In this document: piece after piece, positions 1-23,136 of the stretch
Position numbering within the stretch: the stretch's first letter is position 1
Layout: every line of letters starts with the position of its first letter
Assembly: GCA_017499595.2 (NCBI GenBank)
Contig: CM039003.1
Span: 2,914,001-2,978,000, forward strand
From: Psilocybe cubensis
Lineage: Eukaryota
Direction: 5' to 3'
Length of the DNA: 64,000 nt
The notes under the pieces: generated by a model
What the model was told of the DNA's origin: nothing
The model's input: the letters and a program-made list of their open reading frames with translations, nothing else
Database searches by the model: none
Program-made: the position numbers and the translations under genes

Positions 1-3000
1 AAAAAACACACAAAAAAAAGTAAGTACCCAAAGAAATAGAATGCAGGGTGAGACGTTGAAGTTTTGTAGTGCAAGCCCAGAAGATTTCCCCCGTTGCCCG
101 ACTCCAAGCTGAAGAAATTCTGGCGTTTCCCTTCGAAACGCAGGTCGTTCGTCAGACTCTGGAAAACATGTTGCCAGAGTCGCACCCACTCCGCGTAGGT
201 CTTAATTGGATTGCCATTTATGGTACTAATATCAAGTTTCTGTAGAGGATGGTGGATTTCCTCCGACGATATGAGGACTTCACCTTTTTGAATTACGATG
301 TTTCATCATCGAGCATGCGAGCGGCCATCAAGTATAGGCAAAGCTTGGCTGCCCTTCAGAACAGCATCGTAGAGACACCCTGCGTAACCTCGGCTACATG
401 GGAGCAGGCGGGTAGCTTATTTGCAGCATACCGTCTACTCAATCTCGTAGCGTTGTGGCCAGCAGCCTTTGGACCATCGTTGCCGGTGACCGTGCCCCTG
501 AATGAAATACAGGCCAGCACAGGAACTAAGGAAATATTTTCACGGTTCAAGGTATGCGATCATGAAGTCACTCAATGTTAATTCTTAATTTTCAAACAAT
601 TATTGTAGCTTGTAGATGACTTGAAGGACTGGCCGGCAATGCTCTGCTCTGCCAGGAAGCGCATCCTCAGAGCCGACTCTAAGTCGCACAGAAACATCAA
701 CACCCCTTCTATCAGTGACACGCCGTCATCCGCTTTCACCCAGGGCGGGCCCTCGGAATCAACGCTATTACTCTGTCTGGCGCGTAACCACTTCAAGGGT
801 GTTGTGGGGAAAATAATCGGGAATGTGTACTGCGCCTCGCTACACTACCAAATCTTGTCAGGAATGCGCGGTATGAAGGACGATGAACACGTTCTACCAG
901 ACATTCCAACGGACACGGCTACTCTTGCAAATCTCTAGTAAGTTTTCTTTCCTCTATTCATTGATACAATCTGCTCAACATACCCTAGTGCAAGCGGCCA
1001 TCCTGATGCTGCGTTGTTCCTCTCAGAGGTCACGCCATCTCATTTAAAAATTCCTCTGCATGTCGCCCTTTTCATATCCCCCATCCTTCTTTTTGTGAAT
1101 AAATCTTGGTATTCTAAGAAATGTGACCGGGAGCAGCTGCTTAAAGTAGGTGTATCCACATCCTCCCAGTTTAACTTGGATTAACGCACTCCTTTAGGCC
1201 TCAAAAGCGCTCGGTAATTGTCGCCCCCGTGTTCTGCGTGAAGTGGAGATGGAAATTTGGAAAATCATTGCAGCGCAAAATTGCGACATCCAGTCAGCCT
1301 TATATAAACTTGTTATCTCAGACTGCTGGATGGAATGCGAGCGGGTAATTGCACAAGATCCCGCGTTTCACTTTTTCATATGTGTGTTCTACGTACTGTA
1401 ACAAAATAACAATTTAAACTAATAATTGGCCAGCGTCAACGAGCAGCGCCGAGGTTACAGCAAATTCTAACCTAGCAAGGCGCAGCACTGAACCACACGG
1501 TAAGTTATAAGCAAAGTCTGCGTCAATTACATGATTTAAATCCGTTTAAAACAGCTCAACTTCAGACCGTTTCCCATCATGGTGAAAAAACCACCTGTGA
1601 AGGGTCCGACGCAGACGCGGAGGGTGACGATGATCACGAAGTGGACACGACGGAAATGGTCAGCATGGGTCAACGGGAGAACGGGGACAATACGGTCCCT
1701 ACCTCAAATATACAGCCTCCGGAAGACACGTCTTCAGTGGCTGGCAAGGATGTCAGCATGGGTCAACAGGAGAACGGGGACAATATGGTCCCTACCTCAG
1801 ATATACAGCCTCCGGAAGACACATCTTCGGTGGCTGGCAAGGATGTGCCCACGGACGAGCAACCTGGTTTGCCGCGGAGTGATGATATTGGATCTGGTCT
1901 ACTTCAGACTGAGAATACTGGGCCCTCATCTGCAGGGGATTGTGAGATGAACGTCGATCCGGAGCAAGCTGATGTCGACCATCAAATGGAGGATGGTCCA
2001 CATACCAATGGTCCAGAAAATTTGGGAGATGGCGGGGCTGGACAAGGAGCTGAAGGGTCTTCTGACGAGGCAAATCGTATGTCGGAAGTTCACGAGGGCG
2101 AAAAGCAGGGGCAAGACGGAGAACGACCCGACGAGGAGAACCGAATGTCAGAAGATGGTGAGGAGGAAAGGCCAGACGACAGTTCGTCGGACAATGAGAC
2201 CGAGAAGCAGGGGCAAGGGGATGTTCCACCAGTCCAGGAGGACAGAATGTCGGTCGATGGAGAGGGGGTAGGCCCAGAGCAAAACAATGATTCCTCAGAC
2301 ATGGAGAGGAATACATTGGAAGACAGCCAAGGCGAAAAGGAGGGGGAGAACGCACCTCCTGCTCCTCTTATTTTGAGGATTCCTCCTGTTTCCCAGATAA
2401 ACAGGAGCAAAAACACCACGGCTGACTCCTCTCAGAAAGGGAAAGGGAAGGGCCGGCAGGGCCTTTCCAAGCGGCCTCCCAAACGCAAGCCGACGCAGGC
2501 TACCGACACATTTGATTCGGACGACGACCTGTGTATTGATGTCGATCTGTACGACAGCAACACCACCCTTGATGTCGTCAGCACTCCGGAGAAGGTGTAT
2601 GGCACCAAAGTTTGGTCCACCTACAACGGTCGTGGCCAACTTAAAAGTTTCTGCGTTGTTGCCCATGTAAGTCATTCTCGATATTGATTTTTTCGTCATT
2701 TATTTATTCTCCAAACAAGAGTCAAGCCGACGTGGATCGTGTTGAAAGGGTTCTGGAATTGGTCGAGAGTGACTACGTCGATGGAGTTCCATTGCACATA
2801 GCACGTCCCGAAGAATCATGTTTTGCGGTATTCGACCGCAGCACCACGAAATCCATGTATCTGATGGAGTCTTTCTCTGAAAGGAACGTCGTCCTTATGT
2901 CTCCTTCTCAAGAGGAGTCTATTTCAACTTGCTCCGACGAGTTCTACAGCCAGGTACGTCGCCATATGGGTGATATGACGAGCACCAGGTCAATCCAAGG

Positions 3001-4731
3001 TGTGTTTCCTCTTCGATGTTTTGATTTTTCTTTCTGCGTCTCATGCTAATGGCCGTAACAGATATGTCGACCATGTCGTCTAACCCCATCGAGAGGATTA
3101 AGCGTGGGTCCCTCTCTCAGGTCATGGAAGCAGCGAGGATGAAAGGCAAAAGAGGAAAGATCCTCAATGCCCTCGACATCCCTTTACCTCATGCAGGCGC
3201 TCACTCTTTTGACTTGAGTACTGAGGCGGCTGCTCTTCGGGCTACATCTGGTAGCTGGAAGTATAGTACCCCCGTCCCATTTGGTGATATGTCATGGGGA
3301 CTCGTAGCTACAGAGGGGGCATTTTCAGATATCCATATCGATGCCAATGGTTTCTGTTCCTTCATCCAACCTCTTCATGGACTGAAGCTGTGGATTATCA
3401 TGTATCCCAGACGGTTGGATGTTGACCTTTCTTCTGACCGCCGTGTATTTCTGGGAGACAAGCTGGATTACGGGGAAACGCACCACCAAGACTGGATTTA
3501 CGAGGCGATTGTTCTCGATAACCAGTCAGAACTGTATGTGATTTTTGAATGTCCTACCCATTTGATTATATTGACGCTACTTTGAAAAACAGCTTCATGA
3601 GACCGAATACTCTACATATGGCGTATTCTATCTCCTCAGTGGTTTGCCGTGGCGGACATTTTTACTCCTCCACTTCCTTCGAAGAAACCCTGACAGGAAT
3701 CATTCACTGTTTTACCGCTGGATACAGGGCAACAAATACGAATCATTCAACGTCCCGATTTTTCCTGCAGCAAACCATACATTGGTTCTACAAGGTTTTG
3801 GTTGAAGGTGACAGCGACCCAGAAGGTATGAGGTTTTTTACCGTTTCCTACAAGATATCTGATTCTTTTCTTCTATTTTCTCTCAGATTTTTATGAAATG
3901 TACCATGTCCCATTCTACAGTACGCAGTCCGGATACTCGAGCTTGATAGCTCTGTGCGTGTGCATGATCTTGGCAAATGCGCTCGACTACGAGACCTATC
4001 GAAATCCCGATCAGATGTTCTCCACCAAGACTTCGGCACAGTTAGACGCATGGATGCGGTGGGATACCAACAGCCTGAGCGACGAAGAGCGCAAGGCGTG
4101 CATCTTTGCCCGTGGCGAAGCCTTGGCTATTCTAGAGTGGCTATGTTATCGCACGAAGTCCATCCACTACATGATTGAGACGGACAAAAACAAGGATGCA
4201 CAAAATATCATGGCGACAGAAAAGTTCCATGAAATGATACTTTGCCGCTATGCCCGTATGATTCTAGCCTACGACGCAGAAGCCAAACATAACAACATTG
4301 GTGGTGCCCCTTGCTGTACCGACACCAGTTTGCTTTTTGTCCAGCTTCAGGGCGTCTGCAGCGGAGAATTGAACAAGGTTATATGTCGCAGTATCGACCA
4401 GCTTCCTCGTTCCTCGGTCCCAAAGATGCTCAAGTTACCCGTAATCACTCTCATTGACTGTGATGCCTGTGCGGATTCCTCAACGCAATTGAGTAGGTGG
4501 ACCAGTGTCTGCCTTTGGATATTCACTAACCACGTCACAAACTAGGAACTCCCAAGGAGATTCTGGAACTTGGTACGAGTGTGAGGGATAAACTGTATCT
4601 GGATGGCATGAAAGTCAAGCTGGAGAGCACAAATCCGAGTACGTGTGTTCGATTATGCCTTTACGTCGCAAATGCTTATCTCTTCATCAGAATCAGAGTC
4701 TGTTCCGCCTTCTAAACGACGGCGACTTTGA
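1..4731 (+). CDS. Multi-exon JmjC-like 2OG/Fe(II) dioxygenase with long acidic low-complexity region; 5' end lies before the window
   Basis: Exons linked by GT-AG introns. JmjC-type motifs WGLVATEGAFSDIHIDANG (HxD), GLKLWII and FMRPNTLHMAYS..VCRGGHFY (distal His). C-terminal PPSKRRRL* (NLS-like), stop at 4729-4731. Confidence 0.75.
1659..1846 (+). repeat. 93-bp (31-codon) tandem duplication inside the JmjC gene
   Basis: gtcagcatgggtcaac...ggctggcaaggat at 1659 and 1752; peptide VSMGQ(R/Q)ENGDN(T/M)VPTS(N/D)IQPPEDTSSVAGKD occurs twice. Confidence 0.9.
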
Positions 4732-5202
4732 TATTGTACAACACATTGACACACATCTTGATTTACATACATGCCATGTTTTATTTAGTACTGAAAGGCG
4801 TGTATGTCCTGTAACATAATGACGATTGTTTTATTATCTGTAGTTGTGTGCTGCTCGTATCGCCAGACCAATACGCAAATTCTCGCTGGGATGAAAGCTT
4901 CTGGCTTTACTGTAACTGCTGTGCGTTTGAATTTATCATCAAGGTCAATGAAATCAACTAACTTACGTTTGTTGATGCTTCTTCCACCCACTTCAAAAAA
5001 TGTGTTAGTGTCTTTGTTCTGGTGCGTATATACAGTAAAGCTCTTCCGAAGCCCTCCTTGGATTGTACTACGGATTGGTTGAATACTAACCCATGTGAAA
5101 TTTGTTTGTATTAACGGAGACATAATCAGATAACATTTATAGACCCACTGCACGTTACTGAACATTACATTATCAGTTTTTTTTTCGTATCTTCGCTTTT
5201 GT

Positions 5203-8200
5203 ATGAGTCGTTGTTTCAACATGGGAAAGGGCAAGGGCAAGAGAACTCAGGAAATCTGTGTGCGTTGTCCTCGATGCAACAAGCCATTCGCTAAGCATGC
5301 AGATGTCCAAAATCACATCAATCAACCAAAATCGGCATGTCGTTTTCAATATGAGAACGTTATGCATTTTCAGTCCAATCGTTCAAGCTCTACATCTAGA
5401 TCAGCAACCCCCGTATCTCGAGACCCTTCTCCCGAAATTGGTAATTTTATGGAAGTGGACTATATCGACAATTTTCTTGGCGCGTCATCAGAGATGGAAG
5501 ATGACCCACCCCCCAAGGCATCAAAATACAACTATCCGTACGTGAAGGAGGATTATAACGGGGCTGGAAGAGCATTTGGAACAGGCCTTACATTCATGGA
5601 TCAGCTCAAACAGGATCAATTCGAACCCCAGCGGGCAGAAAATTTGTACTATCCTTTTGCCTCGAAAGATGAATGGGAGCTCTCCCTGTTCCTACTTCGC
5701 TCTGACATGAGCGTAGGAATGCTGAATGATTTTTTGAAACTTGAACTGGTAATTGAGCGTACATTCCCATCATTATTTATTTCAGCTGAGTCGATCCCGT
5801 ATAGATAAAAAAACTCAACTTGTCCTACAAGTCGGCAAAAGATCTACGCAACCGGGCAGAGATCCTTCCCTCTGGTCCGCAGTGGAAGAGTCAAACGATC
5901 ATACCAGAAATACCAAGCAAAAATCAGCTAACGCTTTTTTACCGCGATGGATTGGAATGTATCAAGGCGCTTCTCATCAGTCCCTTGCTCCAAGATAGCA
6001 TGCACTTTAGCCCATTCAAGCTCTTCGACAAGTGCAACGAGATGATGCGGGTATACACTGAGTGGTTTAGCGGTGACATTGCGCATTTTATGCAGGTTAG
6101 TAGCAATGCCTTTGTCCAAGTTTGACGACAGTATAACAAGGTTCCCAAGGACCAGCTCCCAAAAGGAGCAACACTTGTACCTCCTATTATTTCCACGGAT
6201 AAAACCAACATTTCCAACATGACCGGAGGCCGTGTCGCCTACCCTGGCCTTATCAGCATTGCCAACATAATGATGAACGTTAGAAACAAATCGTCAAATC
6301 ATTTATTCCTTCTTTTTGTTCTTCTTCCCATACCAAAGTTTCTTCATCGCTCCAAAGCTGTGAATGGGATGATGGCAGCACGGCTATATCACCAGTGCAT
6401 GGACATTGCTCTAGAATCGGTCAAACAAACTGCGAGGGTGGGAACCACCATGGCAGATGCATTGGGGAATAATCGTTTCTGCTTTACACCGCTTGCTGCC
6501 CTTATCGTTGATACTCCAGAATCTGCTCTGGCGGCTTGCGTCGCAGGATCCACATCCTCTGTGACGTTGGCACAATACGAGACGTTTGGGGATTCCTTTC
6601 GCCACCCTTCCCGAACTGCAGATCATACAATCAACACCATCATGGCCATCAACAATGTTAAGCCCCCTAATCATCTCGAACCATATCTAAAAGAAAGCAA
6701 AAAGCACCGTCTCAATGGGGTTCACCTACCGTTTTGGAGAGATTGGCCCTTGTCTGATCCTTCTGCATTCCTTACGCCTGAACCCCTTCATCACTGGCAC
6801 AAGATGTTCTGGGATCATGATGCAAAATGGTGCATTGCTGCAGTCGGAGGTTCCGAATTGGATTTTCGATTTTCGATTTTACAGCACCGCACTGGTTTCC
6901 GACACTTCAAGGAAGGGATTTCTTCCTTGAAACAAGTGACCGGTAGGGAACATCGGGACGTTCAGCGATACATTGTTGCTCTCATTGCAGACACAGTCAG
7001 TACACCCTTTATCTTAGCCATCCGGTCTCTGATGGACTTTCGGTATCTCGCACAATCTCAAACAATCTCCGAGGCAATGTGTCTCAGAATTGAGCAGGCA
7101 CTGCAAGATTTCCATGCCAATAAACAAGCCATCCTTGACGCGGGAGCACGTCGAGGTAAAAAAAACAACCCAATCGATAATTTCTATATTCCAAAACTCG
7201 AGTTTTTGCAAAGTGTAGTACACGCAATTAGACTAAATGGATGTGCAATCCAATGGTCTGCAGACACGACAGAGCATGCACATATCGAGGTGGTCAAAGC
7301 CCCTTCCAGTTCCAGCAATAATCAAAGATACGAGCCTCAAGTTTGTCGATACCTTGATCGTCGTGACAAATTGCGCAATTTCGATTTGTTTACAGCTATA
7401 CGAGAAATGAGGATTGATTTTCGGGCTATACACTCTGCAACAATTACGGATGAGGAGGAGCAGGAGGAGGGGGATGAGGGGGAGGAAAACGGCGAGGTTG
7501 TGATGGACACAACGTCAGAACTTCTTTCAACAATCATGCCGATGACAACCTTTCAATCAGCAAAGTCCAATCGCATTGTGGATTACTTCTACAAAGCTAG
7601 TCTCTATGAGCGTGGCGTATTGGAAGGCCCAGTCCCCTACAGAACATTTTCTTGCAGCAAAAACGTTGTTGCCCATTTATCTAGGGATGCTAGTTCCAAA
7701 AGATTGCATATCGACGAGGTTGCGAGCATTTTTAAAATTCCCGACCTACGACCAGCAATTGCCGATTATGTGTCACTCATCAATAAGGAATCAAATCCGA
7801 GACAGACCAATTCTCGAGGTTATCACATCAAGGGGATAACTGGCAGGCGTGTTTCTCCTCCCGGTTGTCCGTTGCCGTATTCAAAACTTGAGGTATGGCA
7901 TAAGGTCCGTATACAGTCGACTGCGTACCAATACCCTCATGAGATCCTGGAGGCAGTCACACTTAATGCATATCCGCCATCTAACAAACATCCTTTTGGA
8001 TACTTCGATTCAGCAATCATAAACGTGGATGAATCTGAGGAGTGGCCTCGCAGCGGGCTTCAAGGTAGTACTTCTTTGTGACTTTTTTCCGAACCCCGTT
8101 GACCAGCCAATATTGTAGGCCATTCTGTCGTCGACATTCGTATTATTTTTCGCATTGTCGGAGAGACACCCAGTACTGTGTCTCCCGATATTACTGGAAG

Positions 8201-8507
8201 ATTTCTCGCATACGTCCAACGTTTTGAGGTTTTAAATCAGCCACAGTCTCTAGGTTCTGCGATCCGTGGACCTTACCCAGAGCCAATAACCGGCATGTAT
8301 AAATTAAAACGAAGTCAACGTACAGATAACACCATTATGGGTGGAATTTTACCATTGAATCAAATACGCTCCCTGGTTGATCTGGTCCCTCAGATGGGCG
8401 AGAAGGCAAGGCGAAGCCTTACTACACATAACAGTCATTCCACTAGCACCGAGTTCCGATTAAACAAATATTTTGACAAAGAACTCTATTTGGCCCTGTC
8501 ATCATAA
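5203..8507 (+). CDS. Plavaka transposase with N-terminal C2H2-like Zn finger (4 exons: ~5203-5748, 5805-6095, 6150-8064, 8119-8507)
   Basis: CPRCNKPF..NHINQPKSAC; YYPFASKDEWEL; LFYRDGLECIKALL; RVYTEWFSGD; GATLVPPIISTDKTNIS.MTGGRVAYP; VDTPE; EPLHHWHKMFWDH; FYIPKLEFLQSV; QWSADTTEHAHI. Exons join in frame at canonical splice sites. Confidence 0.88.
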
Positions 8508-8654
8508 CATATCCACCTCAGGAAACCCACAAAGTTTTCAATCCCTAATGCACATTGCCACTCAAATTATCACCCAACACGCCGGCCTCGTTGTACACAA
8601 AGACGACTCGGATCAATATCAACAGCCGCTTCTCACCAGTCCCGCTTTCTCACA

Positions 8655-9066
8655 CTGTATCATCGTCACCTACTGCATATCCCTCCATCCATCTCATCTC
8701 TGCAGAATCAAGTCGTTCTCGCTCATCTTCCGCTCACCACCGCCCAAACTCCAAAGGATTCTTCCCAGAGTGCCTCTTCCTCTAAACAAAAATTCGCCTC
8801 CAGTCTTGTCGGTCCGTCCTGTCCTCAATTAGCGCCCATCTTGCCGGAGATACTCACTTTATTTTTTCAATTCCATTGCAGATTAAGCTGTCAGCACCTT
8901 ATCTGAGATCTGGCGCCCTCAAGACATTCCCTCCCTATTTCTACCCACTGAAGTCCTTTGAGGATTGAGGACATCTGGAAACATACTGCAGACAGCACTA
9001 TGTTATCTCGAAGCCATTCGTCCCAAGGTTCCCAAAATTTGCAAGAGGAAAGCATTGGCCTCTCTC
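8655..9066 (+). pseudogene. Deleted, frameshifted duplicate of the 5' half of the downstream cyclin gene
   Basis: 8660-8946 matches ~9090-9380, including the intron. 8968-9060 matches ~9616-9708. The intervening ~200 bp is missing, and GAT TAA GCT replaces GAT CAA GCT (stop codon). Confidence 0.8.
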
Positions 9067-9089
9067 CCACAATCCATACCTGCCATGCC

Positions 9090-10191
9090 TCTGTATCATT
9101 ACCTACTGAATACCCCTCCATCCGTCTCATTTCTGCAGAATCAAGTTGTTCTCACTCATCTATTCCACCCACCACTGCGCAAATTCCAAAGGATTCTTCC
9201 CAGAGCGCCTCTTCTTCTAAACAAAAATTTTTTTCAAGGCTTGCCGGTCCGTCCTGTCCTCAATTAGCGCCCACCTTGCCGGAGATACTCACTTTATTTT
9301 TTAAATTCCATTGCAGATCAAGCTGTCAGCACCTTGTCCGAGATCTGGCACCCTCAGGATATTCCTTCCGTGTTCCTACCCCCCGCCAAAGTAGGGGGTA
9401 GCTCTTTTCCTCCTACTCATTCCCGTCCAACTTCCAAGCAGATCTCTTCCGATTTGCAATCCATAGCGTCTCATACACATCCAATACATCCACACAACAG
9501 TCATCCCTCCGTATCCGGCCATAACCCTTCCCCGACCCTCTTGCTTGCCTCGGGCACCAAATCCGATCAGATATTACCCCTCAAGTCTTTTGTTTATAAA
9601 GTCCTTCGCCACTCAAGGACATCTAAAAACGTACTGCAGATAGCACTATGTTATCTAGAATCCATTCGTCCCAAGGTCCCACAGATTTTGCAAGAGGAAA
9701 ACATCGGCATTCGCTCTTATGCTCAGCCCAAAAGCAGTATTCAGAAAGCTACCCCAGAAGAGCTGGCGATGGATGCTGAGCTTACTGCTCTTGAGAACTC
9801 CGGCAAGATCAACATCATCAATAATTTCATTGACAATTCTATGCAAACATTCCGTGTTGCCGATTCTGGTTCACAAGATCTGGCTGAATCGTGCATCTAT
9901 CCACAAGACTCTCTGTCCAGCGTAGATGTGCAGGTCTCAACGGCTCCTCTTTCCACCACCCTTTCTTTGCCATCTCCCCTCCTGTGTCCCCGTAGAGCCT
10001 TTCTGGCATCCCTCATCCTGGCCTCCAAATTTTCACAAGAAAAGTGTTATTCTAACCGTGCTTGGGCAAGGTTATCTGGTCTCCCACCTCGTGAAATTGG
10101 TCGCTGCGAACGTGCCCTCGCACAAGCCTTGCAATGGCGACTCTGGGTCGGCAAATGCGCCTTTGGTGAGAGTGCTGCAACTGCCACATAG
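9090..10191 (+). CDS. Pho80/Pcl(Clg1-like)-family cyclin, probably captured from the host; start codon uncertain
   Basis: Cyclin box LPLKSFVYKVLRHSRTSKNVLQIALCYLESIRPK ... LLCPRRAFLASLILASKFSQEKCYSNRAWARLSGLPPREIGRCERALAQALQWRLW. Intron ~9247-9317 (gtccgt...tactcac...ttgcag) precedes DQAVSTLSEIW. Confidence 0.8.
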
Positions 10192-10435
10192 TCTCAATAA
10201 GTTTCAACTTTCACGACCGCGCCATGTAGTACGCATTCTCAATAATCACTCTTTTGCTTGCCACCACTACGCGCGCTCCTCCCGCATTCAGTTAGATAGG
10301 CATCTTCTTAGACTAGCCTAGAAAAATCTATAGAACTTTGTTTTACGTATACAGAACCCCTGAAGAATTTTTATACCCGCGAAGTTTGTTTTCAGCTTGA
10401 ATTCCAACTACGACAAAGTGAGCGTATCACACACC

Positions 10436-10986
10436 ATGCAAATCATCAGCTATGAGGAAATTTTACGAATCGAAGCAGAAGTATTGGCCCCTACTTTCCC
10501 AGATCTAATACATCCTACAACTTTCCCAGAGGCCGCCTCACTTGCTTCTCAAAGACAGCAATACGACTTGGAAATGGCTCAGTTAGTTGAGCAGACCCAA
10601 AAAATGGTCCTTTTGACCGAGAACAGGCTGATACTGGCCATCCTGGCCCTTTTCAACGAAATTAACTGGACCACCCTGGACCCAAGGTTACTATCGTTGG
10701 CTAAAGCCAAGATTACCGAGGGTGACCAGTGGCTCAAAGCACGAGCCGTGAGTTTTCTGTTTCTTCAAGTTTCAAGTTGATACTCTTGCTTAAGATAACT
10801 AGGAGGAGACACTTCGGGATGCAGACTCAGGCAGCCCCGAGCACATATTGACCCAAGGGATGTCCATTATAGCCAACGGCCAGATTCATATTCGAACGGT
10901 AGAGGTGAGTCACAGTGATAACTACTTTGTTTCTACACTTTCTTAGTAATGGGCAGGATCTCATACGAGAATGTCAGGATCATTAA
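10436..10986 (+). CDS. Small 3-exon hypothetical helical protein (element cargo)
   Basis: ATG at 10436; in-frame exons via gtgagt...ag introns (..KARA|EETLRD..RTVE|DLIRECQDH*). Confidence 0.55.
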
Positions 10987-11290: not shown

Positions 11291-12852
11291 TTACTGATGT
11301 GCTATCTGTTTGCACATTGAGTCAGAAAAGAGGATGCACAAATATCAAGAAAGAACATTACCTCGCTTTGCTTTGAATCTTGCTGCGATACGTCTTTATG
11401 GTCATTTCCCAGAAGGACTGGGTCAATAGGAATATCGAATATAGCCAAATCTTTCATGAGCCGCATAGAATTTTCATCAGAGTTAGACTACAAAGTTATT
11501 GAGTTTATACCGTTTGAGATACAGATTGAAGCATTAGAATACATACCTCCATATCAATATCCATTAATCTTGGTCCATCATTTGTTCTCAAAGTACCTGC
11601 TGTTCTAGAAAGCATGTCGTCGGGCTTGAACAAGGTAGAAAGAGCTAGTGGAGATGCCGGTGACTTGCTTTGAGCAGTTAGAGATGTCTGAGGCATGCCA
11701 GTAGTCAGCATCGTGCCAACAGGTCCAGAAAGCGTCTTCATAGGCTTGAGCAAGGTAGTAGGCTCTGGAACGAATGCTGATGGCTCGCTATGAGTGGCTT
11801 GAGGTGTGTGAAGAGTAGAAAGCGCTGGTGTAGACTGTGGTGGCTCGCTATGAGTGGCTTGAGATGTTTGAAGGGTAAGAGGTGCTCGTGTGGACTCTGG
11901 TGGCTCACTATGAGCAGCTTGAGGTGTTTGAGGAGTAACGGGCGCTGGTGTAGACTCTGGTGGCTCGCTACGAGCGGCTTGAGGTGTCTGCAGAGTAGGA
12001 AGCGCTGGTGTAGACTCTGGTGGCTCGCTACGAGCGGCTTGAGGTGTCTGCAGAGTAAGAGGCGCTGGTGTAGACTCTGGTGGCTCGCTACGAGCGGCTT
12101 GAGGTGTCTGAAGCGTGGTGGTAGGTAGCATTGTGCCAGTGGCTTCTGTTGCGGATGCTAGTAGATTTCCATGCGCAATTTGGTTGTTCAACGCTTCTGG
12201 AACCATCTGAGGTGTTATGGGCGCGTTTTGAACCAATGGAAGGGTATTAAGCACATTCCGAACCGCCTGGACACCAAGTTTTGTGTTCACTACTAAAGAA
12301 GCACCTTTGGTTGTGAAAGATGTACTTAGAGGCTGCTGGGTAATAGCCGCTGACACAATATTCGTAGAAGTGCTTGGTGTAGACTTTGAATATTCAAATA
12401 CACGTCAAAAACAAGTGATTATAGGCGTAATTGACCTCTCGTACCTCAGTTTTTTCAACGTCAATGGGATGAGTTGAAGAAGCCTCTGATAATCCTGGTG
12501 GTACTACAATCCTTGATGCCGCGGTATCTGGAAGTTTGTCTAGTGATTCTTGCTTGATTTCCTTGCTATGGACATCTTAGAAGGTTATTATTCTGGTAAG
12601 CAAATGCGCAGTATAACAGTATATATTCTACATACCTTTGACGAGAGCTTGGAGAGCTTTTTTGGCGTCTTTGAACTCTTGATAAATGTCTTCCCAGTTT
12701 TGAGGCCGAAGCTCTTTCCGCTTCTTATGAATGGCGTGCCAGGCGATGGTGGCAGTATCTAATCTGTTACGAGCCACTTCAATCGCTGAAAATATTATTT
12801 AATCCCTCATACAATATGTATCTATGGAGTGCATACATTTTTCTGACTCCAT
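11291..12852 (-). CDS. Multi-exon hypothetical protein with Pro/Thr/Ser-rich 20-aa repeats (element cargo)
   Basis: MESEK|SIEVARNRLD..ALVK|DVHSKEIK..|STPSTST.. joins ORF 11505-12356 in frame; terminal exons end IAHQ* at 11291. Confidence 0.6.
11776..12115 (-). repeat. 60-bp coding tandem repeat, ~6 copies (TLQTPQAARSEPPESTPAPL)
   Basis: Consecutive 60-nt lines 11761-12061 align column by column (ggtgtagactctggtggctcgctacgagcggcttgaggtgtctg). Confidence 0.95.
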
Positions 12853-13327
12853 CAATCTGGCGGTGGGATGTAATGGCAAATTAACAAAGAAGATTCAATT
12901 TCTAGAGGTGCGACGTGAAGGCAGAGTACCAGAAAGTTTTGGCTGTGCGACGTAAATGCAAAGTAAATGAGGTAAGTCCGGCTGTGCGACGTAAAGGCAA
13001 AGTAAACCCAACAAAAACTGCGCTTAGAAAAAATTCAAGTATGTGGCCCTGCTGCTATAGGAATTCTTGTTTGATGCCGTGTGGCCTCCGAGTAAATATC
13101 TGTGCGACATATCGGACGCCATGCCTTTTCAGAAGTCCATCTGACCTCACGATGTATGGACATTTGTGTGTCCACTATGAATCCATCAGAAAACATATAT
13201 ATCATCCCCATTTGTAGAAATAATCGGCTGGAGGGACCAAACCACCGAATTAAAACATGTACCCTGGTAAGCCAAATAACCCATTCCAAACCCGTCCCCA
13301 CATTGCCTCTCCTTCATTTGTTCAACA

Positions 13328-14275
13328 TGTCCCAGGTTTCGAAAAGCAGTACGTGAATCTGTTGGCCGTTGACCGTTATGAAACCAATGTACTAATTAAA
13401 TTATTCTGGCATAGGATGTACTTGTTTTTCTCTCCCTGAGATGGAGAAACTTCTTTCACTCCTCAACTCTGGCAAGCACTTGTTACATGGTGCATTAGTT
13501 CTTTATACTAACTCTTATCTTTAGACTGTAAATGTGGTCCTGCAACGACTTGTTTTTGCCCTGGCCATTTTCTTCCACCTGAACCAGCACGATGGTATAG
13601 TGTTGTTGTAGGTCGCAGTCCTGGCGTCATTCAAGGACGGTATGTCATCACGTTTGTATCACTGTATAATGCTTAAACGTACGGATCTTAGTTCTGAGGC
13701 ACTTCAAAACTACACAGGAATATCTGGTGGCCATGGCCTTTTTTGTCCCTCGGAATCCATTGCAAAGGCCCATTTTTATTCCGCTTTGGAGCGTGGTGAG
13801 GTGGTAGAGGTTATTCCGCCTGTTCGCACAGTGCTGGGTCGTCAGGACTTATCTTTCTGTCCTGGATTTCGTCATAATGACCTTTGTATGTCTATTTTAC
13901 CCATGTTTTTCAATTTACTAAAATATTTTCTATTGCCAAAGCGACTCCAGAAGCGGGAGTTTGGACGTTGGTGATTGTAGGTCGTGAACCAGGCATATTT
14001 TCGTCGGCATAGTGAGTCTAGATGCCTTTGACTTTAATATATCTGTTGCTTACCGCTGGTTTAGTCGTCCCCAAGGTTCTATTGTGAATTTGAACATACA
14101 GGGAATTCGTGGGTCGCAAACACGGGTTATGGAGACTTGGGCCGATGCTGTAGACAAGTTTCTGCAGCTCTTGGATGCTGGTGAGGTAGTACAAGTGTCT
14201 GGTTCGCAGAATATATGCATTAAGCACACTCCTGAGACATATTTAGCTCAATGTAGATATTGCCAGAATGTGTAG
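13328..14275 (+). CDS. Multi-exon protein with two RNase H1 N-terminal / caulimovirus viroplasmin-like (hybrid-binding) domains
   Basis: Spliced translation gives RWYSVVVGRSPGVIQG..EALQNYTGISGG..IAKAHFYSALERGEV and GVWTLVIVGREPGIFSS..NIQGIRGS..ADAVDKFLQLLDAGEV. Both match the (W/Y)xVxxGRxPG(I/V)..G..A..F pattern. Confidence 0.65.
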
Positions 14276-14334
14276 ACTAGTTATTGACTACGTGTCTGCT
14301 CAAGTGCATAAATAATGAACCTAACTTGCATTTT

Positions 14335-15335
14335 CTAAACTGTATCCATAAGGGTGTGGTAAACTACCTGTAGATGTCCCCGCTTTCCTACAATTTCTCG
14401 AAGCTGGACAAATGTTTCAAACCATTCCGGAGTATTTGGAGGAGTTTCTTGCAATACATTAGAATTGAGTTCGTCGGCCTCTTGTAGTGCATCTTGAAGG
14501 AGCCTGCATTTTTCTTCCAACCGACTCCCTTTGAAGCGTCGTGAGTGGCTCCAGCCTGAATGGATAGTCCATCGCTGTTTGAGGGCCTGATAAAAATCAT
14601 CGTACTCGTCAATGACCTTTTCATAAGCCTTGTCGGCCTTCTTTGCACGATCCAGACGTTCCAGCGTCATGAGCTTCTCGTGCATCAAGTCTTCAAATTC
14701 TTGAGATAGATAATATTCTTGAGAGGTATAATAACTCTTGTCTTTGCTTTCGATATCTTTAGAGTTGTTAGGATTAATCCAATACACATTTTCCCAATGA
14801 GATTGACTTACTATTGTTGGTTTCAATAGACTTTTCTATCTGATTGTCAGTTTGTGTCGACCTTTCAGTAAACATTTCTATTTTGATAGTAAAATATTTA
14901 GTAGAGAACTGATACAGTTCTTAATTAAACAAACACTCACTAAGAACTTCTGCTTGTCTAGGCTGTTGAGCTAAAGCTTCAAATGACGGACTTGGATTTG
15001 GAACTAATGGCTCCAATAGCTGGTTCATAGTGTCGTCGATGCTGAGAGCCTTCTGTATCTCGGCCTCTTCTTGCTTCAAAATTTTCCTAAGGTAATAGTT
15101 AGTTTCTAGCTGTACATATTATATGTTTATATACTCTTTCTGCCGACAAATGCGATTTCTCATGGCATTTTTTTCATTTATTTTTTGACGGTTTCTCCAG
15201 AAAAAATGAACAAGCGAAGCGCAGAGATTCATAAATCTGTACTTACTTTTCTAAATATCTTTGTTGTTTTGTTAATCCATCTGGGCCTACTTTGCGGGAG
15301 ACATTTTTTGCAATAGAAAGAGCTGATGTATCCAT
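14335..15335 (-). CDS. Multi-exon hypothetical protein with basic N-terminus and helical C-terminus (element cargo)
   Basis: MDTSALSIAKNVSRKVGPDGLTKQQRYLE|..RQKINEKNAMRNRICRQK, then exons leading to ORF 14335-14826. Confidence 0.5.
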
Positions 15336-16089
15336 TTCAAAAGGTAGTTAGCTATGAATCAAGGTGAGATGAAGAAGCAAGATGTCAATTCTACCAAGAG
15401 TGTCCATTAAGCGCTCACGCGGAACTAGCCACATCCGACCAGTATGGTTCAATTACTTCAATTTGTGTTTACAATATCTATACTACGGGAGCAGCACTAA
15501 CCTATATCTATAGACATGTAGGTCATTCTACTAATAGATAATATGAGGCTAGTATTAGAGAAACAGCATTAACCTTACCATATGCGACATGAACTGCACA
15601 AGTATAACGGTGTATGTGACCACAAAGCTATCTGTATGCGACCAGGTAGGGTATTTTTTAAGTATGTGACCTTGTTTAGTACTGTAACTAGACGGACTTA
15701 CTCTGATACGTATGATGGTGAGTGCGTCAAATGTATGTGACCCTTAGTATACGACTTTGACTGCCAAGTTCTATTTCCGAGGCGCATGTTTGGGGAATGT
15801 TGGCCAGAGTGCACAGACCATGTGCTGATGTAAGTCAAATGTTCCAGCACATGCTGATATAAGCCAAATGGTCTAGACCTGACAGATCCCATCAATCGGC
15901 ACCACCGGGGAAATCCCGATAATTGCTGTTGATCCGAGCTAGCCGTGTGGCGCTAATAGTGGACTTTGTCAAAATGTGAGATTAGAACGTCTAGAATATT
16001 GGATAATATTAAGGTCAGTGTCCACAAGCTTGGTAGGCAACCACATGGCTAATTTATTCCGAAATACATAAAAAGATGCCTGACTAGCA

Positions 16090-16568
16090 TTGAGTATGTT
16101 CAAGACGCGTGCTGCCATGTCCTTCTATGAAAATCACATCTGTGGAAACCCCGAGTGCCCAAGAGACCACTGCCGGAGGATGCCATATATTAAGGCATAT
16201 ATCTATGCATCGGTAAGCCTGAAGCCTATGTAACCACGTCCAGTCTTTTGATATGATTATTTTCTTGGACATAGCAAACCCCCGATTTGCCCCTCATGTG
16301 GCACTTCCGAACAAATTCCATTCAGCATTTGCCAAGCTACATTCAAGACAGTCATATCTGCCATATGACCCGTGTACCGGAGATGGAGCTTTTGAGGGCC
16401 ATACGCGTGTCCGAAGATGAGCATAGATGGATTTATTTTGACCCCAGCATCCCTTTTACGCATCATGACCTTCAAGATGAGCTCATCATACTCAAATGTG
16501 TTGATATTGAGGACACCAAATGCTTTGGACTGGCGCAGTTTGTATCCAAGCTTGACATCATGTTGTAG
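16090..16568 (+). CDS. Possible small hypothetical gene (element cargo)
   Basis: ORF 16287-16568 reads like protein; upstream exon uncertain. Confidence 0.3.
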
Positions 16569-16829
16569 AATAATTTTGTACCTGAATATTGTTCTGATAA
16601 GAATGTTTTCGGTTAATTTCTATCTTCTGATAAGAATGATTTTGAGCAGCTAAGAATGGTTTTGGTTTTAGTATTCTAGCCGTGCATCAGATTTCTGATA
16701 AGAATGGCTTGGGTTTCTGTGTTCTCCGTGCCTCTGAGTACCAATTATTGACTTGGCTCACTTATGGGGCTCAAAATGAGTTAACAAGTTTATAAATTCA
16801 AGCAGAAACATATGTCGAAATCAATTGAA

Positions 16830-18070
16830 TTAGGAATCTAGATTGTATCTACTCTTGTATCGACGTAGCTCTCTATCCAACTCCTTCTGGGATTGATTGA
16901 CTGCCTGTAACTGTAGGGATATCTCTTCATTCTGTCGACGAGACTCATCTAGTTGGCGCTGAAGCTCAACATTTTCCTGTGTGCGAGCATTAATCAAATT
17001 TCGTGTGAGTGATGAGAATTGAGTTCCAATATTTCCAACCTGGGCTGCAGCATCCCTCCAAAGACGAGGAGAGGCATAACTAATGGCACCTCCGCGGGCA
17101 GTTGAATGCTGCGCCCCAATAAATAACCAGCAGGCCGTTTCACGGGAGATATCCTCACACTAGAAATACCAATACATTAGAAATATAAGACTGAATATAT
17201 GTTTGTGTGGACCATACCTTTTCAATGATGGAATTAATGGCATTTGTGAATTTTTTGACAGCACGAGTATTGTCGGATATTGGAGAGGGAAGACGATGCC
17301 CACAAACAATTTCTAGAACAAGTTAACTTGCAATTTAGTAGAATAAAGCAAACTGACATACGATAGACCTCGGTACCACGATAGGCACCATCCACATAGC
17401 CATTGTATGGATTCCTTGCGCTGGTACGATTTGGAGCAACCCGAGCTGAAGCTGACGAACCAGATTGTGAAGACGACATTGAACTTCCGGTCGATCTTAA
17501 AGACAGATGTGCAAGATCGTGACTGGTAAGAACAGTGACAGGACGAGGAGATGGTGTAGCTGGCGTTGAGGGAGTAGAAGTAGAAGTATCCCTAGGACAA
17601 TGATGCTCAGAGGCCGAGATCGATGTGAAGGGGTCAGACAAGGATGGTGAATGGTTTGAGGTTGACGGCAAAGGATTAGAAAGAGCCTTTAAAGCCATGG
17701 TGTAGATTAGCCTAGTAAGACAACTATACAAAAAGAGAAAGCGCACCAGTTCAGCAGCATGCTGGGCAATATACTCCTTTCCCTTACGTGTATGAGCACA
17801 TTGAGACCTGAGCGGCCTGCCCGGACACTTGGTGCACTTCTGGGGCTGGCGCTGCTGGTCACTGCGAGGCTAAATTGCAGATAGTTAGAGAGACACATTG
17901 AACGAATTAAAAATGTATCATACACTTTGCATAGCTGCAGATGACCGTGTCTGCACTCGATCACCGGTATTGCTCAAAGACTGCTTCTATATATCCGTGT
18001 ATAGCATAAGCATGTAGTTAATTTTAAAAACCTAAAGGCTTACCTTCTGAAGCTTTGAGCTTCGCGCCAT
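16830..18070 (-). CDS. Putative transcription factor: CxxC..C.H Zn motif + Ser/Pro linker + MADS-box-like domain + coiled coil (6 exons)
   Basis: Spliced: MARSSKLQK|KQSLSN..MQS|PRSDQQRQPQKCTKCPGRPLRSQCAH..|ALSNPLP..TEVY|QIVCGHRLPSPISDNTRAVKKFTNAINSIIEK|CEDISRETACWLFIGAQHSTARGGAISYASPRLW..ELQRQLDESRRQNEEISLQLQAVNQSQKELDRELRRYKSRYNLDS*. Confidence 0.65.
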
Positions 18071-18314
18071 TTTGATTGTGAGCGGGTATGATGGCAAAAG
18101 ACAAGAAGTAAACTGATGCTACGTGGCATTGAGCTTGGTTTATATACAAGATAATTATGGCCACAGAAAAATTAGGAATTTGGCAGAAAGCAGAATATTT
18201 GGAGCGCCTTCAGTTTCAGGCTTTAGGACAGATTCCATTCAGGCGCTAGGAAAAAATTTCTATGTCATGATCATGACATTTGTGTGCTGCACTCAATGAA
18301 TATTTGTTAAATCC

Positions 18315-21300
18315 ATGAGCGACTCACCCCCCCCCATTGTATATGCTGCCCCCCAAGATTCACCTCCACCAATTCAATATGCACCTATTGGAGAGACTGA
18401 TTCTCCTATTATTACTCCTCGGCGGAAAAAGCGAGTTGTCAAAAATCAAGTTGTGCAAGCCAAGCGACAGAAAAAACACACTCACAACAATGATACCACC
18501 TTTTTGAACGCACTGGCATCTCCTGACAGTATGGACCAAGTCAGGGATTCCATCCCAGCTAGTCCAACAAGCATCAATGTATTTGATTTACACAAGCCTC
18601 TTGAAATGGGTGATCAAGAACACATTCCAGACGAAGACTCGGATTATGCTACATTTTTAAATGCTGTATCGGCTGAAGAATGTGGCATGTTCCAATTGAC
18701 GGATTGTTTGTTTGTGGTGAATGGATGGAATGCCAAAAAATGCCAGCCTACAGTGAGTTATACAAATCATTGCATATTACATGACTACTCTACACAACTA
18801 ACCTATATGTTATACCAACAGAAAATGTGGTATCATGCACTATGCATGGAAATCAATGGCATTAAAAATGCCGTATGTCTGTGCCCAGGCACATATGGGC
18901 GGGCAACAGAGTGTTTCCATTCTCGGTTTCTCATTGGAAAATCGGCAAGCAGTGAATCTCAGACTCTCTTGTCGGATAGACAATTCAATGGTACGGTCAC
19001 CCAAATCTTTTCACATAGCATTCAGATGTTTCATTATTGATTATCTAGACAATGAAAACTTGACTTTTCTTTTCTCTCGGGGTGAAAGTATCATCGATGG
19101 ACACTTCTACAATATATTTTCAACTCCTTCTGGAACTCGGTATCCGACAATCAAGAACCGAGCTATTGTAGAGCATCTTGGAGAGGATTCTGGTACGGGT
19201 ACCTGGAAATGCAATCGTGATCTTGGTGCAGTATTGTGCACACATATTGCTTTGGCTCGTCATGCCCTCCAACAATATCTTCAAGGAGACTGTGAAGCAC
19301 GAGATGAAAGCATAAATAGTTCAAATGGTACAGTAGAATTTGGAGGTACGTACATTGATTTAATTATATTCTGTTTGGATACTTAATAATAATATCTAAG
19401 ATACACCTGTTCGTCAGTTAGCAGGGATCATATCATCAGTATCCTATATTTCGCTTCCACCACCTATATGGGCACGCATTGCATCTGATCGGAATGCACC
19501 TCCTCGGATAACTATGGATGTTCCTCCCTCATTGTTCCTGCTTGCTGAGAACGATTCATGCTCCTGTTCAAACCCACGAGAGAAGTTTAATCCATTTGAA
19601 TCCACATTTACACGCACATGCACTGTCTACACATTAACAAGTGCATTTACAGCAAGCATAATGTTGCAGAAATGCAGACAGTGCAAACATCGCTTTATTG
19701 GACCGGAATGCAGCAACTTGGGTGTGTTTAATTTCAACAATACAAGCCTCTTTACGCACGAGCTCCTAGACGACTATACCAGTGCATTTTCATCTTCTGA
19801 AACACCCTTTGTCTCTTGGGTTCAAACGGTATCCCGCAGATATCAAACACGCGGTTCAAAAATCCCTTTTTCCAATGAAAAATTGTTTCGTTCAGCATGG
19901 TTCTCTTATATCCGATTGGTGGAGTTCTCTAACGATATGATGTGTCCAGAGTGTGGCCCAAGTCCCGATGCAACAATCTGGGATGGCGTTTCTGTAGCCT
20001 TCAGTCGACGCAATCTACTTCCATCACTTCACCCACCAACAACTCTGGGAGAATTCTCCGTTACACGAAGCAATGTCAGGCCCATTTCCAACTTACAGCC
20101 AATTCCAAGCCGACACACCCGACTTCTTATTAGATTTGTCTTGATTGGACCGTCACTCAGCCTACTGTCGGGCGAAACCATCCCTGAAGGTACTCCGGAG
20201 TATGAGCGAAATAAAAAGTTGGTTGAAAGGATGGTAAAAATCCCGGATCTAGTGTCGCAGCTGACAGAGATAAATGTTGGTCTTGGTGGCCTATTCAATG
20301 TGCATCACGGATTAAAGGTGGTGTTATCAAAGCAAAATATGACCGAAGCATACTCCAAGTTTTTCATTCAGGTGCGAGTTTGTGCTCAAGTTTATAATTT
20401 AATTTCTGAGAAATCTACAACAGCTCTCATCAGATGAGAATATACTGCAACTTGTGGCTTACAATGTGTTGGATAACCTGCGTCGATTCATTCACAACCC
20501 TGTCCAACATAATCTCAGTCTTCTCAGGCACATTCCCTCGCTTCACCGTATGGCCAAACATGAACTCCATCTGGGAAGGTTATCAAATGACCTCTTGGAG
20601 ATCTGCAAATGGCTTTACATCAGATCTAGTACGGCATATTCACTCTTGAAAGTCCATGATCATCCGAACAAGCCAACCATGCCCTCAACAGTCAAAGAAG
20701 ACTGGATTTTGGTAAGCTGATTTGTGTTTCAAATGTTCAGAAATTAATATTTTGTAGACTGGATGCTGCTATTCTATGCCTCAGATTCGCGAACGACCTT
20801 CATATCCAAATCTGCCATACGAAATGGGAAATGACCTCGGAAGTGTTGATGTCATTGAAGATGATGTATGCCGAAAATATTATTCAACATATTCCAAGAA
20901 GCGACTTACGGGTGGCATTATGTGTGTATGGTGTACACATAGCATATGCTATGGGTTCCACTGCATCCGTGCTGCTGAAGGGAGAAACGATGTTTTTTCT
21001 GCAATTTATACCCGTTGGAACCAGGCGCCCAAAATTATAGTTTACGACTTTGCATGCGCACTACAGCCGTATTGCATGTCACGTGAGCCGGAGTTCTTCA
21101 AGGATACTCTGTTCACCATTGACATATTTCACTCCACAGAGCACAAATGCGGAGAAGCATGCTTCCTTTCATCGTATTGTGTTGAAAACCCCGAATTTCT
21201 AGCTCTGAACTCTAGTGCTGCCGAATGCGGAAACAGTGGCATTTCCAAAATTCGAAAGGCCGTCAGCTACATGACTCAAGAGAGAGCGGTAATGTATATG

Positions 21301-21369
21301 CGCGTGTATTTCTCGATTTGGAACAGGACCCAGATACAAAAGTTGGAATTAAAACTACATGATAGATAG
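18315..21369 (+). CDS. KDZ (Kyakuja-Dileera-Zisupton)-class transposase, HMGXB3/Zisupton-like, with SWIM-like fingers and CxC4-type cysteine cluster
   Basis: CLCPG..ECFH and WKCNRD..LCTHI (SWIM-like). C..CKHRFIGPECSNLGVFNFNNTSLFTHELLDDYTSAFSSSETPF (CxC4-like). CPECGPSPDATIWDGVS; LTGGIMCVWCTHSICYGFH..EGRNDVFS; IVYDFACAL; IDIFH..HKC; NSSAAECGNS. Exons stay open. Confidence 0.85.
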
Positions 21370-21494
21370 AACAATATACTGTTGACCACACCAGATAGCC
21401 ATGAAGTCTCAATTGTAAATCTCAAACTCTTTCAAATTAACCATGAACTACAACTGTAAGCCAGAATGCTCTATTCCCGTGATTCTCATTTTTT

Positions 21495-22230
21495 TGTCTG
21501 GCGGCCGGAATTTTGCATATGAACAAATTTCCGGCGCATGGCTGGAATATTCTTGTGTTCCAAACTTGTGTCCAGCGGCTAGACTATTGCATAAAGCGTC
21601 ATATCTGGCGCATGGCTAGAATATTTCTGTCTGGCGGCTGGAATTTTGCATATACACGAATTTCCGGCGCATGGCTGGAATATTCTTGTGTTCCAAACTT
21701 GTGTCCAGCGGCTAGACTATTGCATAAAGCGTCATATCTGGCGCATGGCTAGAATATTTCTGTCTTTCTCAATTTGTGTCTATTGGCCAGATTTCTATAT
21801 ATATTTCTGGCGCACGGCTGTATTACTCTTGTTTTTCTCAATTTCTGTCTAATGGCCAGAATCATGCATATAGCCTGATTTTATATGTCTGTGGTAAAAC
21901 TGCATCCAGCGGCTAGAATTTTTATGCATATGGCATTCTGCCGTTGCCACAATATTCTGGCCAGCAGCCAGAATATTGTGTCGTCCTTTAACTATAGGCA
22001 ATAGCCGTAATATTATTATGGCGCATGGATAAAATAGTCTTGTGCTCCCTATATATTTCTACTGGCTAGAATACTCCAATGACCGTCATATAGGACTATG
22101 TATTCAAATTATTTGTAGCACATGGCAGAAATATTCCATTGTCCCACCTCCTGACGACACAAAATATGGCTCTAGCCAATATTCCATTTACCCACAATTA
22201 TATTCCAGCTCCAAGCTAGAAATCCGGCCG
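21495..22230. repeat. Subterminal repeat block: 133-bp tandem duplication (21495-21765) plus dispersed GGC(T/C)(A/G)GAAT motifs in both orientations
   Basis: Copies start at 21495 and 21628. Motif recurs at e.g. 21540, 21613, 21854, 21911 and 22064, and inverted at ~21955 and ~22171. Confidence 0.85.
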
Positions 22231-22412
22231 CACAATAATTTGGTCCATGGCCTAAGTACAGTCCACTAACAACCTAAAATGGTAAGCACTAATGTATGGT
22301 ATACGTTTGAAAGGCATGTAAGGTGCAGCATTGGGTGGTATGTGGGGTGCGTTTTGTCTACATTTCTACCCAGCCGGTAACCCCCAATTAGAGAGGTTTT
22401 CTTTCTGTAGGG

Positions 22413-22969: not shown

Positions 22970-23136
22970 TGCTAGGCCAATTAAAATGTAATAAGGAAAT
23001 GCATGCCAGTTTCAATTGTTCCTAGGCACTGGACACATGGATCAAGTTCTAAGGATATATAATACATACATAAAATTCTTCCCGAATAACAAAAATATCA
23101 TGACGCGAACCTTCTCAAGGCCCCGAATCGAAAGAT

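Follow-up and report, generated by a model that had tools for sequence, protein, structure and literature searches.

Does a dense block of mobile-element genes in Psilocybe cubensis represent one giant transposon with two transposases, or do two elements lie here one within the other? The block fills the first 22.4 kb of a 64,000-nucleotide stretch of contig CM039003.1 (GenBank assembly GCA_017499595.2, positions 2,914,001 to 2,978,000 of the forward strand), hereafter the window. The original prediction, made from the letters alone, had treated the block as a single mobile unit of >22 kb whose two transposases shared one toolkit of cargo genes. Our analysis leads to a different answer, to which we give a probability of about 0.8: the block is a nest, in which a Plavaka transposon has inserted inside a separate large KDZ transposon. 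The two would be cut-and-paste DNA transposons, each with its own ends and a transposase that acts on those ends, brought together through nesting. The Plavaka element would be a strain-specific insertion at the window site that landed within a larger mobile KDZ block. Coordinates below are window positions, and features lie on the forward strand unless stated otherwise.

Where transposases lie next to each other in a mushroom genome, they can belong to a nest, and the elements are then cleanly told apart by read depth and loose read ends. Four sequencing runs were compared over window positions 4501-24500. X13 and X14 are raw Illumina reads carrying the same species label, X1 consists of contigs of the likely source, and X5 of contigs from another study; depth is the sum of both mate columns for X13 and X14, and word depth for X1 and X5. 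In 4/4 runs the depth of 4501-11170 is approximately 12 times that of 11838-24500. Depth in X13 and X14 is ~540-580 over the multi-copy part and ~40-50 over the single-copy part (~544 versus ~46 in X13), and the corresponding word depths are ~204 versus 16 in X1 and ~330 versus 25 in X5. As delimited by the depth step, loose ends and annotated copies, the multi-copy part (1-11299) comprises the right-hand 11.3 kb of a DNA transposon of PlavakaB type, whose left end lies beyond the window start. It is present in ~12-14 near-identical copies per genome.

The right terminus of this element, TGATG at 11295-11299, coincides with both the depth step and the loose ends. Behind positions 11299, 11300 and 11301 there are 219, 121 and 66 loose-end reads in X13, and 237, 157 and 80 in X14. 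The consensus agreement of these ends is only 0.41-0.53, and the copies must therefore possess many different right flanks. PlavakaB families have termini of the form 5'-CATCA..TGATG-3' and target-site duplications of 2-3 bp, according to the accessible part of Kojima 2025 (PMC12730594). A CATCA-led inverted partner of the right end was not found above chance within the window. The boundary at 11299 and the copy number are, in our judgement, very nearly certain.

Annotated proteins of the same species trace this unit across the genome. In a protein search, the exon at 3064-3534 of an accessory gene (gene A, described below) matches P. cubensis proteins at 99-100%. The best match, P0001, is a 1973-residue model that fuses the JmjC-like gene A with a Plavaka transposase. 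Its 90%-identity cluster contains 39 members, and all 15 members listed are from P. cubensis; once P0002 and P0021 are added, the proteins listed for this cluster derive from no fewer than 12 loci distributed over 8 contigs. In each of five models that bear the name ‘G1/S-specific cyclin pas1’, the transposase is fused with a cyclin-like gene, and two of these (2523 and 2556 residues) additionally include gene A. P0016, a model of 2670 residues named hypothetical, spans gene A, the transposase, the cyclin-like gene and then a small open reading frame (ORF). By tblastn, the annotated copies map to window 168-10904 at 98-100% per exon. Since the accessory genes and the transposase recur together at 12 or more loci, the gene set repeats as one unit, whose left end lies beyond the window. 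Variant copies also occur. One carries a 1374-bp deletion in the transposase gene that joins 5483 to 6858 (27 reads in X13, 22 in X14), and others carry tandem duplications of 108 bp (10066-10173, near the cyclin gene) or 398 bp (10902-11299, at the right end).

The single-copy part of the block behaves differently. We read 11300-22383 as the right-hand 11.1 kb of a large KDZ element, based on its flank-level depth, an X5 contig and strain-specific loose ends; the left end is again outside the window. In X1 and X5 the block and the host flank have equal depth. One X5 contig of 9475 nt covers 12081-21555 with 29 differences, which makes the KDZ gene contiguous with the ORFs on its left in a strain that has no Plavaka element at this site. 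At the right boundary, the host side (22384 onward) is preceded by the same alternative sequence in X13 (38 reads, agreement 1) and X5 (1 contig), and the element side at 22383 is followed by differing sequences in X13 (39 reads), X14 (36 reads) and X5 (1 contig, at 22388). As the broken reads at 22383 reach approximately the full local depth, the window junction seems to be absent from X13. Contigs of X1 bridge 11274-11970 and 21736-24500, and because the second of these, from the likely source, spans the 22383 junction, the junction is no artefact of the window. The KDZ block occupies different genomic positions in different strains.

The junction falls within a host ORF, as had been predicted, although the break lies at 22383, 29 bp to the left of the 22412 then proposed. 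The 3' part of this ORF occupies 22384-22969, where X13 reads and the X5 contig join a different upstream sequence. When the 30 nt found upstream in the other strains are read by hand, ORF 22322-22969 stays in frame through another ten codons, which is weak evidence. The identification of the cut ORF as an F-box gene could not be upheld: Pfam gave no F-box, no homologues were found among longer proteins, and Atlas returned only unnamed clusters, with leucine-rich-repeat leads below 0.9.

The same block could be described without invoking a transposon at all, as a variable stretch of host DNA that contains a resident or domesticated KDZ gene and in which the 22383 break reflects a rearrangement or an assembly-level structural difference. 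This description accommodates the single-copy state of the block in every run, the lack of a visible terminal inverted repeat (TIR) or target-site duplication in a window that does not reach the left end, the failure of Pfam to detect the transposase core, and the presence between 11.3 and 18.3 kb of ORFs without a known family. It does not readily accommodate the dense, one-sided repeat field that directly follows the transposase gene, as in the subterminal regions of DNA transposons, nor the observation that the same end meets three different sequences (X13, X14 and X5) while a single alternative upstream sequence is shared at the locus to the right. The coverage of the 22383 junction by the likely-source contig also speaks against an assembly-level difference. 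Furthermore, Cryptococcus has large low-copy KDZ elements (6.4-10.9 kb) that contain extra ORFs and in some cases lack TIRs, as described in the accessible text of 10.1101/2024.08.15.608186. We consider a host region quite improbable, and hold it probable that 11300-22383 belongs to a transposon, i.e. a separate, large, low-copy and mobile KDZ element.

The KDZ-type transposase gene itself lies at 18315-21369 and encodes ~920 residues in 5-6 exons, all of them open. The Pfam scan, which covered 26 ORFs and exons of window 1-22969 and mostly left out ORFs below 100 residues, detected CxC4 (PF18717, E=7.9e-46) in ORF 19400-20437, with the CxC4 cluster at ~19532-19909; CxC4 is also present in the homologues P0025, P0026 and P0194. 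The 917-residue P0025 aligns by tblastn at 96-98% per exon with every exon open (its first high-scoring segment, at 87%, spans an intron), and its 90% cluster has 2 members. A further homologue, P0042, carries the KDZ transposase domain PF18758 at residues 808-898 (E=8.3e-7), inside a stretch 60% identical to the last exon of the window gene (20734-21342). Relatives of the gene were named ‘SWIM-type’ and ‘HMG domain-containing’ by their sources, and CxC4 together with these names fits the Zisupton-type domain structure of the Cryptococcus study. With Pfam matches and open exons for both, the open Plavaka and KDZ-type transposase genes of the original prediction are confirmed.

Directly downstream of the transposase gene is the subterminal repeat field (21480-22100), another feature that had been correctly recognised near the right end. 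It includes a 133-bp tandem unit repeated 2.1 times at 21491-21765, a 19-mer with 5 occurrences where 0.04 would be expected, and a short motif for which 9/12 of the forward-strand matches in the window fall inside 21503-22064. The repeats are one-sided, with no inverted copies of the subterminal motifs anywhere in the window. The KDZ right end likewise has no inverted partner within the window, and neither inverted repeats in 1-24000 nor terminal pairs led by CATCA, TGT, CACTA or CA exceeded chance. Target-site duplications are 8 bp in Zisupton and 7 bp in Kyakuja elements; a second copy of the 7-8 bp following 22383 was not present at a plausible left end within the window.

The KDZ block also carries a mutational signature. 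Almost all differences of the window version from X5, X13 and X14 are transitions, in which the window has T or A in place of C or G. Among the sites listed, 25/32 are CpG-to-TpG/CpA changes in context, and the ratio of observed to expected CpG is 0.70 in the block versus 0.93-0.95 in the host flank. Such a pattern points to deamination of the KDZ element, driven by methylation, in the source lineage.

How, then, did the two elements become neighbours? A check that the original prediction had itself proposed, for alleles lacking the insertion, returned reads of the site without Plavaka in three other strains (X13, X14 and X5). An identical 30-nt sequence precedes 11299/11300 in X13 (23 reads), X14 (25 reads) and X5 (1 contig), with an agreement of 1, and this sequence was not seen in X1. 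An A at 5637 that is private to the window copy appears in 1/540 X13 reads and 1/497 X14 reads, where ~1/13 would be expected if the copy were present. Three strains with differing right flanks have one and the same sequence to the left of 11300, from which we infer that the KDZ block extends to the left of the Plavaka insertion point. If the mobile block does continue left of 11300, then the Plavaka element is nested inside it. Both elements have apparently been active recently.

These observations bear directly on whether at least 22.4 kb could move as one composite giant transposon, with two transposases and a shared toolkit. The two parts are contiguous in the source strain, where X1 contigs bridge both junctions, the KDZ transposase and right end look intact, and a KDZ element could in principle carry a nested Plavaka. 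Set against this are the 12-fold fall in depth at 11299, the TGATG end and many right flanks that belong to the multi-copy part alone, the KDZ block without Plavaka at this point in three other strains, and 90% clusters of 2 members for the KDZ homologue versus 39 for Plavaka. In addition, as a rough proxy for distance, the annotated KDZ gene is 30 accession numbers from the nearest Plavaka-cluster protein on the same contig. We regard the composite as highly improbable. The predicted >22 kb single mobile unit is refuted on its own terms: each transposase belongs to an element whose ends and copy number are independent of the other, with ~12-14 copies and a separate TGATG end for Plavaka and a single copy for KDZ; the ‘shared’ toolkit falls with it, as the named cargo genes divide between the two elements. 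One possibility is that the intact KDZ element is now able to move the nested Plavaka as a >22-kb composite.

Several points weigh against the nested arrangement. The left ends of both elements are outside the window, together with any TIR pair or target-site duplication. X13 and X14 are not independent, since they stem from a single study and have their variants in common. The reads that precede 11299 in these runs (23-25) are fewer than those at 22383 (38), and one of the haplotypes may carry the Plavaka element. In X13 and X14, depth over the KDZ block is higher than in three flank bins by a factor of ~1.3-1.4, and the consensus agreement behind 22383 is only 0.59 (X13) and 0.73 (X14). Finally, PF18758 had no match at E≤1 in the window exons, P0025, P0026 or P0194.

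While both transposases are of familiar types, the genes that accompany the Plavaka transposase are less so. Gene A (51-4650, ~9 exons) was delineated by tblastn with P0008, P0010 and P0016, whose exons match at 98-100% identity; the diverged paralogue P0004 reaches window position 51. It consists of a conserved N-terminal region, an acidic repeat region (with a 93-bp tandem repeated twice at 1659-1846), a JmjC-type core and a helical C-terminal region. The core, at 3064-3824, was recognised by a profile match to the Protein Data Bank (PDB) and contains S-x-x-H-x-D, G-L-K and a downstream H. A profile of 82 family members matches PDB 3n9l, a KDM7 homologue, at E=4.2e-7, and PHF2, PHF8 and KDM2A at up to 1e-3, with the alignment running across HxD...H. 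The H-I-D and the downstream H are kept in the window exons and in P0007 and align to the 3n9l triad. The aligned Ser and Lys, which on the strength of PHF8/KDM7 structures we take to be 2-oxoglutarate-binding positions, are also kept. The core of gene A is thus JmjC-type Fe(II)/2-oxoglutarate (2OG) oxygenase-like, with its predicted metal and co-substrate residues intact. A PE-type TET/JBP identity was considered for gene A and rejected, as the PE type, known from Agaricus Plavaka, has H-x-E where gene A has H-x-D and the JmjC demethylase match.

Gene A belongs to a large family, in which 787 representatives pass E≤1e-3 and 268 pass E≤1e-10. Nine relatives that were looked up come from eight Agaricales species (in Psilocybe, Galerina, Agrocybe, Panaeolus, Infundibulicybe and Marasmius); the clusters of 3/9 were named ‘JmjC domain-containing’ by their sources, a name that both Galerina matches also bear. 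P. cubensis itself possesses a diverged paralogue family (P0004, P0023 and P0024) with 64% identity in the core exon, in which R-I-S replaces H-I-D and which, judged by these residues, is probably catalytically dead. One of the five long relatives from other species, P0180 of Marasmius, includes a Ulp1 protease domain (PF02902, E=6e-14), a domain that plant CACTA and Mutator elements frequently pick up.

The Plavaka DDE transposase gene follows at 5221-8450 and is open. Its ORF at 6126-8081 matches PF18759 (Plavaka, E=6e-64) and DUF6830 (E=3.8e-45), both of which are also found in P0016, and its exons were mapped with P0019 and P0010. The second accessory gene, at 9301-10188, encodes a putative Pho80-like cyclin fold, an assignment drawn from sub-threshold Pfam matches, Atlas and source naming. 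Atlas places it with PF08613 clusters at a score of 0.93 and 199 shared features. A partial duplication precedes it and reaches into it, 8662-8946 versus 9095-9381 at 88%, and a further internal duplication relates 8951-9040 to 9599-9688 at 81%. The duplicated stretch 8662-9688 is at full multi-copy depth and is therefore a feature of the Plavaka family. The third accessory gene is a small ORF at 10394-10904 that lies inside the multi-copy unit, is matched at 99-100% by the C-terminus of P0016 and has no Pfam family.

The original prediction therefore stands in outline: accessory genes do accompany large DNA transposons here, a demethylase-like and a cyclin-like gene among them, with reservations on both labels. 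The label ‘histone-demethylase-like’ is backed by the profile match to solved JmjC structures, although no Pfam family, JmjC included, was found in the gene A protein. The label ‘cyclin’ is weakly supported: the Atlas score and the ‘pas1’ source names favour it, but Pfam scores are below the cut-offs (17.7 bits for PF08613, with a cut-off of 21; 17.6 bits for PF00134, with a cut-off of 23), neither family was reported by Pfam for the fused model P0016, and the ORF has no PDB sequence match. Two further points call for caution. The Plavaka domain was found in 0/5 long gene A relatives from other species, and the linkage of JmjC to Plavaka may be specific to this lineage. Furthermore, the Plavaka copies are ~99% alike and hence uninformative on selection on the accessory genes.

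What might these genes do for the element? A JmjC-type enzyme would counteract repressive chromatin marks on the element, in parallel to the TET/JBP enzymes of other fungal Plavaka and KDZ elements, and through the cyclin-like protein the element may be linked to a Pho85-type kinase of the host. The genes could also be viewed as functionless passengers, i.e. captured host genes or read-through models of the kind seen in Pack-type elements. The high similarity of the copies, which prevents a test of selection, suits that view, as do the very large size of the JmjC-like family in Agaricales (787 representatives, with 0/5 long relatives linked to a Plavaka domain) and the R-I-S of the P0004 family, in which loss of catalysis is tolerated. 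Against it, the window and at least six long annotated copies have every exon open in gene A, in the cyclin-like gene and in the small ORF, and the H-x-D...H triad and the aligned Ser and Lys are kept. Accessory 2OG oxygenases also recur as a conserved feature in Plavaka elements, as fungal TET/JBP (PMC12730594) and as red-algal PAG3 (10.1101/2025.02.11.637652), to judge from the available portions of both papers. We hold the passenger explanation to be a real but minority possibility. A functional role of the accessory genes for the element is offered only tentatively, with the balance leaning somewhat against it. It is doubtful that the Plavaka family is active and autonomous, with the JmjC-type oxygenase and Pho80-like cyclin forming a working anti-silencing and cell-cycle module in place of TET/JBP.

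The remaining ORFs belong to the KDZ block and lie to the left of its transposase gene. An ORF on the reverse strand at 11302-12404 encodes 20-residue repeats (a 60-bp unit repeated 5.6 times at 11777-12113) and has no Pfam family. At 13512-14275, two ORFs split by an intron have translations that resemble, by eye, the N-terminal hybrid-binding domains of RNase H1; the RNA:DNA-hybrid-binding domains claimed for the block on this basis were not confirmed, as the single exons have no Pfam match and only chance-level matches to PDB (E 0.15-1.1). A 166-residue ORF on the reverse strand (14335-14835) gave only chance-level Pfam matches. The last, also on the reverse strand (16830-17698), is a three-exon model of our own splicing, with a Ser/Thr-rich N-terminus, a coiled-coil-like C-terminus and weak Pfam matches of coiled-coil type. 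The MADS-like factor of the original prediction was not recovered, either by Pfam on the scanned ORFs or in a six-frame scan with MADS-box motifs. Its count of about ten intron-containing genes comes close, at ~9 intron-containing ORF sets, and as it stated, none of them is housekeeping.

To the right of 22.4 kb, the DNA resembles ordinary host sequence, with an aldo-keto reductase, a NACHT-WD40 gene, an ABC transporter, a fragment of an SMC-type ATPase, HSP20 genes and a tRNA. The tRNA gene (30041-30161) apparently contains an intron; it scores 51.4 bits in Rfam but is missed by ARAGORN in bacterial mode. A 2.35-kb tandem duplication of ~80% identity spans window 56318-59785, and two HSP20-type copies lie in inverted orientation within 59957-61611, with arms at 60111-60334 and 61388-61611 that are 79% identical.

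The broader interest of this locus is threefold. Firstly, a young family of ~13 copies with JmjC-type and cyclin-like genes provides a tractable case for the escape of a DNA transposon from chromatin silencing. Secondly, the ‘gigantic’ KDZ elements recently described from Cryptococcus gain a counterpart in Agaricales, a position-polymorphic, single-copy element of at least 11 kb. Finally, the apparent recent activity of both elements in a cultivated species matters for strain stability and typing. A survey of the transposable-element literature on P. cubensis by title and abstract returned nothing on these elements.

How do these two elements compare with known systems? Starships, the giant elements of ascomycetes, are likewise large and carry non-transposase genes, although most are an order of magnitude larger than the two elements described here. 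The transposases here are of the DDE and KDZ types, unlike those of Starships, and none of the 26 ORFs and exons scanned with Pfam in 1-22969 is a Starship tyrosine-recombinase captain.

For the KDZ part, the closest parallel is in Cryptococcus, where KDZ1-3 and KDZx1 are low-copy, ‘gigantic’ elements of 6.4-10.9 kb with extra ORFs, as given in the accessible text of 10.1101/2024.08.15.608186. On that text, the block in the window resembles them in its low copy number, its CxC cluster, its extra ORFs without known domains and its mobility between strains, and it shares with KDZx1 both CxC4 and the lack of a detectable TIR. It differs in being larger, at 11.1 kb or more, in that its transposition is deduced from strain differences, and in that the Pfam KDZ model misses the window protein.

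For the Plavaka part, two comparisons are relevant. The accessible part of Kojima 2025 (PMC12730594) describes PlavakaB families carrying TET/JBP in Agaricus bisporus and Gymnopus confluens. The element in the window is like the PlavakaB of Agaricomycetes in its Plavaka domain, its TGATG right end, its multiple copies and the 2OG/Fe(II) oxygenase-type gene beside the transposase, and unlike those TET/JBP families, as far as described there, in that the enzyme is JmjC-like with H-x-D and is joined by a cyclin-like gene and a small ORF. Neither JmjC nor cyclin occurs in the portion of that text available to us. Red-algal Plavaka elements of Bostrychia (10.1101/2025.02.11.637652) are 17.4-19.1 kb long with three accessory genes, PAG1-3, and the portion consulted of that study notes that in basidiomycetes TET/JBP alone had been found with Plavaka. 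By the same portion, our element is similarly large (at least 11.3 kb) and has several accessory genes, among them a putative 2OG oxygenase and putative chromatin-type functions; the accessory genes nonetheless differ, no SET/DNA-methylase PAG2 being seen here, and ~13 near-identical copies contrast with the red-algal elements, which make up a third of the genome mostly as degenerate copies.

TET/JBP is the sole accessory content reported for fungal Plavaka in the literature that was searched. A search of that literature for a link of JmjC or cyclin genes to Plavaka/EnSpm found none, subscription papers and supplements lying outside its reach. While both superfamilies are known, the Plavaka accessory set of a JmjC-type and a cyclin-like gene thus appears to be new. 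If the JmjC-type enzyme and the cyclin-like protein do work for the element, Plavaka elements would have repeatedly and independently recruited different 2OG oxygenases: TET/JBP in other fungi, PAG3 in red algae, and a JmjC-type enzyme in P. cubensis.

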